A DNA stretch of 64,000 nt from Bacilli bacterium (GCA_045628045.1 JAZQOV010000001.1:1-64000), one strand, 5' to 3'; shown: positions 56,496 to 59,587, counted from the stretch's first letter. The notes: generated by a model not told the origin, from the sequence alone. A program made the numbers and translations.

Positions 56496-58502
56496 TTATT
56501 TCACAACTCTTGCATCGTTTAAGTAGTCACTTAAAACATTGAGAAGTTTTGTTTCAACTTCCTCAAGAGTTTCATTTTTAAATGCAGCAGCACTTTGCGT
56601 AAAATGGCCTCCGCCGCCAAGTTTTTCAGCTAAAAGCTGAACATTGACTGTGCCATCACTACGACAGGAAATTCTAATTTCATTAGATTGAGTTTTACCA
56701 ATGATAAATGAAGCGTTTATGCCTTTCATTGTCATACATTGATTGCCAACTTTAGCAAGTGTTGCAGCTTCGATAATATCTTCTTCGTCTGCTAAGCAAT
56801 AAACAATTCCATAATATGGAGTTTTTGTATTAGCCAAAATTTTATTAATTAATGAATGTTCTTCAAATTCATCTTTTAAAAAATCGTCAGCTTTTGTATT
56901 ATCTGCGCCACATTCCTTTAGGAACATTGCTGCCTCAAATGTTCTTGCACCACAGGTGGTGGATTTGAAGAAGTTAGAGTCCATAAAGATACCAGCAAGC
57001 ATAATTGTTGCTAATGGTGCAGGAACAATAACTCTTGGGTTTTCAGAGGAATATTTGATAAGTTCAGCAACCATTTCTGATGTAGAAGAAGCTGAAGAAT
57101 CAATATCACAGAAAATAGGAGATTCAATAAAGTCTTCCCCACGTCTATGGTGATCAATAACCATGATTTTGTTAGCCTTATCAATAATTTTTGGGGCAGA
57201 AGTCATAGATGCTTTGTGAACATCACATACCACGACAAGTGAATTGCCTTTTAACATATCAAGACCTTGAGTTTCTGTGATAAATACATCACCCATTTCT
57301 TCTTTTGCGAATGTTGAAAGTAAGGCACCTTTAGTCTTTCTTTCAATACTCTTTGGGTTATAAACAATTCGGCATTCTGTACCAACAGCATCACAAATAG
57401 ATTTAATACCAACGCATGCGCCAAGTGAGTCCATGTCACTCATTTCATGGCCCATTACAATGACGTTTGCAGAATTCTTAATAAGAGAAATAACAGCATC
57501 GCCCATAACACGAACTTTAACTTTGTTGTGTTTTTCTTGAGCTTCGCTCTTGCCACCAAAGAATGTTAAATCTTGACCATATTGTGAAACAACAACTTGG
57601 TCACCACCTCTTGAAATAGCAATTTCAACACCTGAAACAGCCATTTCATTTAACTTAAGAACATCAGGATAATCGTAAGCAATTCCTATGGAAAGTGTTG
57701 GTGGAGTTGATTCTTTTTCACCAATCTGGTGGATTTTGTCTAAAAGTGAAAATTTATCTGCAATCATTTTTTCTAATGACTCATAGTTACAAACAATAAA
57801 ATATGCGTCATTGTTAACTTTTCTTAAAAGAGCCGAGAAATCACGGCAATAATCGTAAATTGCGTTTCTAACTTTGGAAAGCGTATCGTTTGATTCTTCT
57901 TTTCCAGATACATCGGAGAAGTTATCAATAATAATTTGACCAATAACAGTGCTTTGTCTTTTTGAGTAGGCACTAATAGTTTCAAAATCAGTTGTATCTT
58001 TAAAGATATATAGACCAGCTTCTTTTAGTAATTTAACTTCATAGTTTCTTGAGTTTAGAGAAATTTTTGCAATTGCGCCTTGTGATTCTTCACTTAAATT
58101 TGCTAAGGTTGGTTGCCAATCCAAAATATTTTCATCAAGGATTTCAATTCCTCTTTCTTTAAATAAAGTATTTGTCCACAAAACAACATTGTTTTCGTCA
58201 ACAACTGCTAAACCTAGCATACCAAAGTTGTAAGCTTCTTGAATGTCTGAACCAATAAGATCGGCGGCCTTTAAGTCTGTCTTTTGTCTGATCTTTGTGA
58301 AATACATAAGAACAATCCATGCATAAAAAATATTTATAGCAGCGATTGCTCCGAGTGTTGGGTAAACAACAATGTCTCCGCCAAGATCTTGAATACTAAT
58401 AAAATCAAAATACACAGCAAGACATACCAAAATAATGCCAATAAGTTCTATAAGGCCAAAAACAAAGCCAACTAATTTAAGTCTAAATAATTTCTTTTTC
58501 AT
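56496..58502 (-). CDS. gdpP: cyclic-di-AMP phosphodiesterase (TM-PAS-degenerate GGDEF-DHH/DHHA1)
   Basis: RGGDQV, GH..SDMDSLG, IDHHRR and GGGGH motifs; upstream of rplI. Confidence 0.93.
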   Translation of the reverse strand: MKKKLFRLKLVGFVFGLIELIGIILVCLAVYFDFISIQDLGGDIVVYPTLGAIAAINIFYAWIVLMYFTKIRQKTDLKAADLIGSDIQEAYNFGMLGLAVVDENNVVLWTNTLFKERGIEILDENILDWQPTLANLSEESQGAIAKISLNSRNYEVKLLKEAGLYIFKDTTDFETISAYSKRQSTVIGQIIIDNFSDVSGKEESNDTLSKVRNAIYDYCRDFSALLRKVNNDAYFIVCNYESLEKMIADKFSLLDKIHQIGEKESTPPTLSIGIAYDYPDVLKLNEMAVSGVEIAISRGGDQVVVSQYGQDLTFFGGKSEAQEKHNKVKVRVMGDAVISLIKNSANVIVMGHEMSDMDSLGACVGIKSICDAVGTECRIVYNPKSIERKTKGALLSTFAKEEMGDVFITETQGLDMLKGNSLVVVCDVHKASMTSAPKIIDKANKIMVIDHHRRGEDFIESPIFCDIDSSASSTSEMVAELIKYSSENPRVIVPAPLATIMLAGIFMDSNFFKSTTCGARTFEAAMFLKECGADNTKADDFLKDEFEEHSLINKILANTKTPYYGIVYCLADEEDIIEAATLAKVGNQCMTMKGINASFIIGKTQSNEIRISCRSDGTVNVQLLAEKLGGGGHFTQSAAAFKNETLEEVETKLLNVLSDYLNDARVVK

Positions 58503-58615
58503 ACTAATAGATATTATAGCGCACTTACTTAATAAAAAGTATCTTTAGTTACTTTTTTCTTCGCAAGTATTAATTATATTAAAAATATGCGGGAAAAGCT
58601 GTGGTTTTAGATAAG

Positions 58616-58640
58616 AAAAAAGAGGCCGTCGCCTCTTTTT
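58616..58640 (-). terminator. intrinsic terminator of small-protein copy A
   Basis: AAAAAAGAGGC-CGTC-GCCTCTTTTT. Confidence 0.85.
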
Positions 58641-58659
58641 AAGTTGTTCTAATCTAGAT

Positions 58660-58884
58660 TTAGAACTTTCCGAAGATTATTCTGAGTAAAAACTCAACAA
58701 TTGCAATTGGAACTAAGAGAATGATTCCAATAAGTGAGCCAAGACAGTCAACAAGAACTTCTAATGCACCGGCAACAACGCCAATGAGGCATCCGAAGAT
58801 ACCATAACTAAAAAGTTGTGCGACTGAATGAAGATTACCCCAGATTAATTTAATCGAAGTTATACAGCTAGTTGCTATTCTCAT
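58660..58884 (-). CDS. 74-aa hydrophobic glycine-zipper protein, copy A
   Basis: AGGAG SD, own promoter and terminator; 53/74 residues identical to copy B. Confidence 0.85.
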   Translation of the reverse strand: MRIATSCITSIKLIWGNLHSVAQLFSYGIFGCLIGVVAGALEVLVDCLGSLIGIILLVPIAIVEFLLRIIFGKF

Positions 58885-58907
58885 ATGATTTTTCTCCTAC
58901 GATTGAA

Positions 58908-58936
58908 ATTATACATAATTTTCACTAATGTTTCAA
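58908..58936 (-). promoter_or_regulatory. sigmaA promoter of copy A
   Basis: TTGAAA-17 nt-TATAAT. Confidence 0.8.
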
Positions 58937-58964
58937 ATAATAATTTCTTTAGGAAAAGGGGAAG

Positions 58965-58988
58965 AAAAAAAGAGGCATAAGCCTCTTT
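58965..58988 (-). terminator. intrinsic terminator of small-protein copy B
   Basis: AAAGAGGC-TTAT-GCCTCTTTTTTT on the minus strand; same stem as the copy A terminator. Confidence 0.85.
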
Positions 58989-59004
58989 AAGTTCGATAAT
59001 TTAT

Positions 59005-59229
59005 TTAGAATTTACCAAATAATAATCTGAGGAGGAGTTCTACTAATCCAACTGGAAGAGCAAGAACGAAACCGATTACGGATCCGATGCAATCGACAAC
59101 AACCTCAAATGCACCGACAACAACACCGATAAGGCATCCAAAGAAGCCATATCCGAAGAGTTGACCGACTGCGTGGAGGTTACCCCAAATTAATTTAATC
59201 GAAGTTATACAGCTGTTAAAAATTCTCAT
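59005..59229 (-). CDS. 74-aa hydrophobic glycine-zipper protein, copy B
   Basis: AAAGGT SD, own promoter and terminator; paralog of 58660-58884. Confidence 0.85.
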   Translation of the reverse strand: MRIFNSCITSIKLIWGNLHAVGQLFGYGFFGCLIGVVVGAFEVVVDCIGSVIGFVLALPVGLVELLLRLLFGKF

Positions 59230-59252
59230 AAATTTACCTTTCTTTCATAATT

Positions 59253-59281
59253 ATTATATTAAAAACATAGCGTTTTTACAA
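59253..59281 (-). promoter_or_regulatory. sigmaA promoter of copy B
   Basis: TTGTAA-17 nt-TATAAT. Confidence 0.8.
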
Positions 59282-59290
59282 ATAGAAATT

Positions 59291-59587
59291 TTAATCTACT
59301 TCCACAACCTCGCTAAAACCAGTCATATCAAATATTTCTTTAATTAGCGAAGAAGTATTAATAATTGTAAGTTTTCCTTTACCATTTAATTCTTTTGAAA
59401 CGGCTAGAATTACTCTTAATCCTGCGGATGTAATGTATTCAACATTTTTGAAATCTAAACAAATATTGCTAATTTTTTTCATTACTTTGCGTATTTCTTT
59501 ATCAAAAGCGCCAGCTGTTTGAGTATCAATACGTCCCTCAATTAAGATTTTTGCGGAATTTTCTTCTTTAATAATCTCTATTTTCAT
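59291..59587 (-). CDS. STAS-domain anti-sigma factor antagonist-like protein
   Basis: EGRIDT..A, LDF..VEYITSAGLRV and EIFDMTGF motifs. Confidence 0.88.
   Translation of the reverse strand: MKIEIIKEENSAKILIEGRIDTQTAGAFDKEIRKVMKKISNICLDFKNVEYITSAGLRVILAVSKELNGKGKLTIINTSSLIKEIFDMTGFSEVVEVD

Follow-up and report, generated by a model that had tools for sequence, protein, structure and literature searches.

The closest described counterparts of the genes treated here are small hydrophobic membrane proteins. Proteolipids of the Pmp3/YqaE type carry no enzyme domain and have a presumed role in membrane or ion homeostasis. Hairpin viroporins such as hepatitis C virus (HCV) p7, and class II holins or pinholins such as phage 21 S68, work by oligomerisation in the membrane. 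We analysed a 64,000-nucleotide (nt) stretch of DNA from a Bacilli bacterium (GCA_045628045.1, JAZQOV010000001.1:1-64000; the window in what follows), which holds a tandem pair of genes for 74-residue (74-aa) hydrophobic peptides, copy U and copy D. Our preferred reading, to which we give a probability of roughly 45%, is that these peptides are hairpin proteolipids that associate with one another in the membrane of the cell that makes them, rather than a secreted toxin. Within this reading the reality of the genes and their membrane character are near certain; we infer the hairpin fold, the oligomeric state and any physiological role. The peptides resemble the Pmp3/YqaE-type proteolipids in being very small, extremely hydrophobic and predicted to fold back as two-helix hairpins whose termini face the same side of the membrane, and differ from them in giving no sequence match, in an added N-terminal amphipathic helix, in a much narrower distribution and in their invariant residues (W15, N17, D46, P59 and FGK). 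They share with S68 and p7 a length of ~60-75 residues and two predicted hydrophobic, glycine-zipper-faced helices, but have no phage context, no PHROGs match and no charged C-terminal tail, and their expression signals look constitutive. The F/V-ATPase c-subunit is a helical hairpin of similar length (~75 residues), its first helix rich in glycine, and it also keeps a conserved carboxylate; unlike it, the peptides have their carboxylate, D46, at the predicted turn and not in the middle of helix 2, and there is no polar cytoplasmic loop, Pfam match or ATPase operon.

The pair was found on the minus strand of the window as two 74-codon open reading frames (ORFs), flanked on one side by a STAS-domain gene, rpsR, ssb and rpsF and on the other by gdpP, rplI and dnaB. 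The features of the pair, in the direction of transcription, are as follows.

59253..59281, minus strand: promoter of copy U, TTGTAA-17-TATAAT, 10 of 12 consensus matches (consensus scan)
59237..59242, minus strand: Shine-Dalgarno (SD) sequence of copy U, GAAAGG, 7 nt 5' of the ATG (read from the sequence)
59005..59229, minus strand: copy U, 74 aa, 'MRIFNSC...' type, the derived paralogue, seen only in the window's lineage (ORF, BLASTP, tree)
58969..58988, minus strand: intrinsic terminator of copy U, AAAGAGGC-TTAT-GCCTCTTT stem and T-run (hairpin scan)
58908..58936, minus strand: promoter of copy D, TTGAAA-17-TATAAT, 11 of 12 consensus matches (consensus scan)
58894..58898, minus strand: SD sequence of copy D, AGGAG (read from the sequence)
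58660..58884, minus strand: copy D, 74 aa, 'MRIATSC...' type, most similar to the single-copy sequences of the relatives (ORF, BLASTP, tree)
58617..58640, minus strand: intrinsic terminator of copy D, 10-bp stem AAAAAGAGGC-GACG-GCCTCTTTTT, between the peptide genes and gdpP (scan)

BLASTP aligned U and D without gaps (53/74 identities, 72%; 63/74 positives; E 6e-29), and 164 of 225 bases were identical at the nucleotide level. An earlier note on this region had described an equal-length pair with 53 of 74 residues in common, in agreement with this alignment, and its details at 58616..59281 were all present at those coordinates. The note had also proposed purifying selection, and substitution patterns bore this out. 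Differences between U and D fell at first, second and third codon positions 17, 6 and 38 times, and Nei-Gojobori estimates of nonsynonymous and synonymous divergence (dN and dS) were 0.17 and 1.57, the latter near saturation, for a ratio of 0.11. For the wider family we compared 22 copies: the two of the window, those of two species-representative genomes, and others from 18 metagenome loci; their 18 distinct coding sequences gave a median dN/dS of 0.13 (range 0.055-0.32; 152 of 153 pairs usable). U and D are real protein-coding genes under purifying selection.

Both peptides were strongly hydrophobic, with a grand average of hydropathy (GRAVY) of 1.46 for U and 1.57 for D, and carried a net charge of about +1. 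Residues 1-20 were amphipathic (hydrophobic moment 1.2-1.3) and residues ~27-70 formed one hydrophobic stretch of ~44 residues with a single dip at 42-46. As read from the sequence, the charges agree with the positive-inside rule, with R2, K12, R68 and K73 at the ends and D46 at the turn. Among 32 family sequences W15, N17, F25, G28, G31, G35, D46, G49, P59, F71 and G72 were invariant and S6, I11, I14, Q23, Y27, V45 and G53 were at least 90% conserved. Conservation was partial at C7 (84%), H19 (56%), G39 (75%), E42 (81%), E64 (88%) and R68 (75%), and cysteine was the minority residue at positions 32 and 47, where V and L respectively were commoner. In distant members D46 was the sole charged residue within the 44-residue hydrophobic stretch. 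The conserved small residues were aligned on faces (24/28/31/35/38/42 in the first half and 49/52/56/59/63/67/70 in the second), so that G28, G31 and G35, along with A38 and E42, share one helical face and G49, I52, L56, P59 and V63 another. Residues listed as invariant in the earlier note were indeed all identical between U and D, and W15, G31, G35, D46, G49, P59, F71 and G72 kept that status family-wide; C32, C47, H19, G39 and E42 turned out not to be family features. The three supposedly invariant cysteines therefore fail in the larger alignment, D46 alone survives from the proposed buried pair E42/D46, and the G31xxxG35xxxG39 zipper is present with its first two glycines invariant but its third only partly conserved.

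Structure prediction with AlphaFold2 (AF2) from 15 sequences returned helices at 2-27 and 29-71 with a break at G28 (predicted local distance difference test score, pLDDT, 73), and with 32 sequences it returned one helix spanning 2-71 (pLDDT 91, predicted template-modelling score 0.48). As a straight 70-residue helix is implausible for a membrane monomer, we read these models just as helical throughout. In the arrangement we propose, the N- and C-termini would both be inside, and an amphipathic N-helix (1-20) containing the invariant W15 and N17 would lie in the cytoplasmic interface. A first transmembrane helix (~24-44), with G28, G31 and G35 on one face, would lead through a tight outer turn, V45-D46-x-x-G49-S/T50, into a second (~48-70) containing G53 and P59 and ending in a basic C-terminal anchor, F71-G72-K/R. 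The peptides would probably self-associate via the conserved small-residue (glycine) faces, giving homo-oligomers in the relatives and homo- or mixed U/D hetero-oligomers in the window's genome, with D46 ringing the outer end. Their role would be in the cell's own membrane, in ion or membrane homeostasis, and is possibly connected with GdpP.

The expression signals were compared across the same 22 copies. Every copy had a TTGTAA-like -35 box, a spacer of 17-18 nt and TATAAT, a AAAGAGAGGTAA-type SD ~6-8 nt before the ATG and a AAAAGAGGC-loop-GCCTCTTTTTT terminator 15-30 nt past the stop, and the stem of the D terminator was kept in all relatives examined. The view that each gene is a complete unit with promoter, SD and terminator thus applied to both genes and extended to 22/22 copies, and the common terminator stem described with it was found as an AGAGGC/GCCTCT core with a T-run after both genes. 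Against shuffled sequence, the 1.3-kb region was enriched in terminator-like sites (5 vs 0.6 +/- 0.7), but the class of promoter-like sites showed no such excess (8 vs 5.4 +/- 2.4), and the case for the U and D promoters therefore rests on match quality and, more strongly, on conservation. By its signals each peptide gene is thus a monocistron, and gdpP, further on, forms a near-leaderless unit of its own.

These signals also bear on whether the peptides might damage the membrane of their own cell, either as a type I toxin held in check by an antisense RNA or as a holin/pinholin-like lysis peptide. Messenger RNAs of type I toxins are translationally silenced, the opposite of an exposed SD, and all 22 copies had a short 5' leader with a strong unsequestered SD. 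Small hydrophobic peptides encoded in stand-alone, tandemly duplicated units do recall many type I toxins, but synonymous sites were near saturation (median proportion of synonymous differences 0.51), so that no constraint from an overlapping antisense RNA is visible, and Rfam gave no match at gathering score. A holin was hinted at by very weak matches of 2/18 family members to the Pfam family of two-transmembrane mycobacteriophage holins (best E 0.23); set against this are the lack of phage genes, of an endolysin and of PHROGs or PADLOC matches, the identity of the neighbours (rpsR, STAS, gdpP) and the missing charged C-terminal tail typical of holins. We regard a self-damaging toxin of either kind as highly improbable.

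Searches of family libraries and structures agreed with the earlier statement that no known family could be recognised, as profile and fold searches gave no Pfam, NCBIfam, PHROGs, PADLOC or Protein Data Bank (PDB) match. With U and D, Pfam returned 0 families at E <= 1; with 18 members at E <= 10, no family occurred in more than two, the best single match being DsbD_2 (E 0.0041, one member), and of the Gly-zipper profiles Gly-zipper_Omp was touched by one member (E 4.6). Nothing in NCBIfam exceeded its cut-off (best DppC, E 0.0064, vs a 483-bit cut-off), no PHROGs family matched more than 1/18 members (best E 0.0051), PADLOC gave no match and a profile search of PDB sequences reached E 0.78 at best. 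Foldseek gave 0 matches at E <= 0.001. The best VIA-align score, Z 7.9, was to generic long helical hairpins and lies within background for helical models, and the best ESM Atlas cluster (0.86; 74 aa) was unnamed, with no usable named cluster. Phage records (50,697), plasmid records and IMG/VR contigs contained no match to the peptides. A pilin- or coat-like subunit, which the earlier note had listed as a candidate, found no match in any library. A supposed resemblance to the YccF inner-membrane component domain (PF03733, a 51-position profile) was rejected, as the window's genome gave no match at E <= 10 and 10/14 control genomes were positive; YccF was likewise missing from the Pfam matches of the 18 members.

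The size of the family was assessed by two kinds of protein search. A word-indexed search of 5.8 billion clusters recovered 14 proteins with 73-100% identity, 13 of them 74 aa long and one 82 aa, and none of these close proteins carried a name or a Pfam domain. Profile searching of all 1.84 billion 50%-identity representatives gave 6 matches at E <= 0.001, including three small proteins of 68-75 aa that were 37-46% identical to U. Another match, P0018, a metagenome protein of 105 aa, was family-like in its last 42 residues and unrelated and hydrophilic in its first 63; it may be a genuine fusion, a copy with a frameshift or the product of a misplaced start call. Matches to the repetitive proteins P0019 (882 aa) and P0020 (710 aa) were taken as spurious. 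A repeat profile search from three distant members ended at 6 proteins in total, and the whole family amounts to about 20 close and 6 distant clusters among billions of proteins. In a set of 8000 longer candidates (133-2000 aa) no fused or extended form scored E <= 0.01, which is weak evidence.

At the level of genomes, U and D were the only family copies in the window's own genome (1.07 Mb, 14 contigs, 96% complete, 34% GC). Outside it, no convincing match was found in 200 sampled genomes of the same family, in 400 of the same order (20 of them same-genus) or in 398 scored genomes of the class. Tallied by rank, the sampled genomes without the family were 20 of the same genus, 264 of the same family, 401 of the same order and 398 others of the class, and the overall sample of other Bacilli came to about 800. 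Weak matches (E 4e-5 to 7e-3; 6e-4 to 9e-4) were partial and lay within ORFs of 141-591 aa; one that was inspected, in genome G195, was a membrane tail rich in glycine, part of an unrelated protein of 140 aa, and the remainder were taken as spurious without one-by-one inspection. Scanning 185,579 species representatives for close relatives identified two metagenome-assembled genomes, Bacillales bacterium UBA7029 and the sheep-rumen Bacilli bacterium RGIG6798, which from contig numbers and coordinates appear to be those same-genus genomes in which the GdpP N-terminus was nearest that of the window (68% vs 42-55% in others). Among the searched data the family is confined to a handful of uncultured Bacilli with small genomes, from gut or rumen.

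Several of these results weigh against the peptides being hairpin proteolipids with a role in their own membrane. A hairpin at the proposed D46 turn appeared in neither AF2 model, one breaking at G28 and the other being a straight helix, and it is from hydrophobic length and charge distribution only that we infer the topology. Ranked among 887 crude ORFs by a self-consistent codon-adaptation index, the peptide genes came at the 42nd and 38th percentile, with rplI, rpsF and rpsR of the window at the 73rd-95th. Such middling adaptation is weak evidence against very high expression, and the high expression claimed in the earlier note is not established, although the signals are strong and conserved. 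In addition, close relatives among the sampled genomes do without the peptide, whatever its function, as would be expected of an accessory or niche role, an antagonistic one included.

An antagonistic function would suit leaderless or circular bacteriocin-like peptides released against competitors, here as a two-peptide pair, which was another candidate of the earlier note. The patchy, strain-level phyletic distribution is shared with enterocin L50A/B, AS-48 and gassericin A, as are the size range (about 60-75 aa) and, in the window genome, the tandem paralogues; tandem leaderless pairs of 72% identity are known, enterocin L50A/B being an example, and a short N-terminus and aromatic C-terminus would also be in keeping. 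The peptides are nevertheless far more hydrophobic (GRAVY ~1.5) and nearer neutral (net charge ~+1) than these cationic soluble bacteriocins. Their AF2 monomer models consist of long unbroken helices, with no compact saposin-like fold or 4-5-helix bundle, and in relatives the gene is single-copy, syntenic and at a fixed chromosomal position among housekeeping genes. No biosynthesis gene adjoined the peptides in the window and, as had been noted before, no export, immunity or maturation gene did so, nor was an exporter, immunity or maturation gene adjoining in 22 related loci. The 96%-complete genome yielded no SpoIIM/DUF95 (PF01944) gene, its sole C39-peptidase-like genes were on other contigs and the peptides have no double-glycine leader. 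With these results a bacteriocin appears improbable. The missing phage, plasmid, IMG/VR, PHROGs, PADLOC and SpoIIM/DUF95 matches, together with the housekeeping neighbours, argue that the peptides are not mobile or exported machinery.

The hairpin proteolipid reading leaves room for a link with the neighbouring gdpP. The surroundings of the peptide gene were compared as well. The relevant features of the window are these.

56496..58502, minus strand: gdpP, a membrane-anchored cyclic di-AMP (c-di-AMP) phosphodiesterase (Pfam GGDEF_GdpP, DHH, DHHA1)
58513..58518, minus strand: -10 box of gdpP, TATAAT, 10 nt before the gdpP ATG, without an SD (14-spacer alignment)
59291..59587, minus strand: STAS-domain gene, 98 aa, the upstream neighbour in the window genome only (Pfam STAS, 2.1e-13)

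Loci were counted as informative when they reached at least 372 nt past the peptide stop; these held 13 distinct peptide sequences, and six further loci were too short. The gene order gdpP-rplI-dnaB followed 160-210 nt downstream of the peptide gene, on the same strand, in 16/16 informative loci, and a single peptide copy stood upstream of gdpP in UBA7029, RGIG6798 and 14 further metagenome loci. The immediate upstream neighbour was of six kinds among the 21 loci with enough upstream sequence. It was DNA-alkylation-repair-like in 11/21 and flavodiiron-like in 6/21, and the other four loci each had a different neighbour: an unknown membrane protein, a gene resembling cysteine synthase, one on the opposite strand resembling aldo-keto reductase and, in the window, STAS (names of these, STAS apart, assigned by eye). 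No other locus had the STAS gene upstream of the peptide. The spacer between peptide gene and gdpP (58500-58660, minus strand; 14 loci) was strongly conserved, with a CCATAT(A/T)T element and an AAAAAGT-loop-ACTTTTT hairpin. Its TATAATAT box, invariant across the loci, stands 10-13 nt before the gdpP ATG with no SD, and most relatives have a TG on its upstream side, set off by one base; from the position of the box gdpP looks near-leaderless with a regulated promoter of its own.

The constant adjacency, in spite of six upstream contexts, raises the question of whether GdpP has in the peptide a membrane partner, accessory or regulatory, that binds the two-helix anchor of the enzyme and tunes the enzyme's activity or stability, an idea drawn from gene order only. 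Both are membrane proteins, and a precedent for the arrangement exists in B. subtilis, where, according to a preprint (bioRxiv 10.64898/2026.05.13.724699), the membrane-protein gene yybS lies directly upstream of gdpP-rplI in the same operon. YybS is described there as polytopic, modelled as the S subunit of an energy-coupling factor (ECF) transporter and co-transcribed with gdpP. The likeness to YybS (DUF2232) is in being a membrane protein encoded at this position; the peptides differ in their 74-aa length, in giving no DUF2232 match and in having a unit closed by its own terminator. That strong conserved terminator separates the peptide gene from gdpP, which has its own conserved promoter. 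All informative loci moreover come from one narrow clade (GdpP ~75% identical), so that shared ancestry could explain the adjacency. When 23 other same-genus loci with upstream sequence were searched (hmmsearch --max, all ORFs of at least 35 aa), just the four expected matches were returned and no family member preceded gdpP in any of the 23; in three of them a flavodiiron gene lay ~120 nt from gdpP, which makes the peptide gene a presence/absence difference at that junction. Origin of the peptide from the GdpP membrane anchor was also rejected, as the two showed no sequence relation (hhalign probability 0.6%). A limited literature search, which is not proof of absence, turned up no small membrane partner of GdpP. 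Taken together we find a GdpP partner unlikely. Somewhat less likely again is the fuller proposal that the peptides would be the first small membrane partners of GdpP, docking on the anchor and setting c-di-AMP turnover, and thereby osmotic homeostasis, in gut Bacilli that seem to lack a wall, with U and D as two tunings.

The region upstream of gdpP-rplI-dnaB in same-genus loci (L016-L041) was highly variable and looks like a rearrangement hotspot, its neighbours including rpsR with a lipoprotein-like gene, small genes of toxin-antitoxin type, large ORFs resembling surface proteins and a flavodiiron gene; no YybS/DUF2232-like gene was seen upstream of gdpP in these loci. In the window, the STAS gene (anti-sigma-antagonist-like) sits between rpsR and the peptide pair and has its own promoter-like site and terminator.

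The history of the pair was addressed with a maximum-likelihood tree of 32 family proteins. U-type sequences formed a clade of 5 rows (support 98/96) inside an 8-row clade (98/92) that also held D and its two closest relatives, and this U/D clade was nested among single-copy sequences. The nesting shows one duplication in the window's lineage with both copies kept since. The single copy upstream of gdpP is thus ancestral and the window's pair a retained lineage-specific duplication. Three U/D-type pairs agreed in the length of their longest contig (2822, 2534 and 1329), which suggests more tandem pairs, and two different U-type sequences (P0003 and P0009) had the same longest contig of 1329 nt, a hint of a U/U tandem elsewhere.

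Small hydrophobic proteins are under-annotated, and the peptide family is nameless in every library searched. It offers a clean example, clearly coding and with conserved expression signals, from uncultured small-genome rumen or gut Bacilli. For a narrow-range orphan small membrane protein the value lies chiefly in annotation and in the GdpP hypothesis, the fixed place beside gdpP giving a concrete and cheap hypothesis on the control of c-di-AMP signalling.

The host genome was also examined for cell-wall and peptidase domains. A search for the penicillin-binding transpeptidase domain (PF00905) gave no match in this genome (1.07 Mb, 96% complete), with 10/14 control genomes positive. The bacterium may lack a wall, as Mollicutes-type Bacilli do, and, with no PF00905 found, the membrane may be its only barrier. 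On contig C14 (locus L062, 700..1872, minus strand) a 390-aa ORF combines a peptidase C39-like domain at its N-terminus (E 2.3e-16) with a membrane region of several helices, but has no ABC ATPase; it sits between genes judged by eye to be ybeY-like and rpsU-like. Contig C6 has another C39 match, a weaker one.

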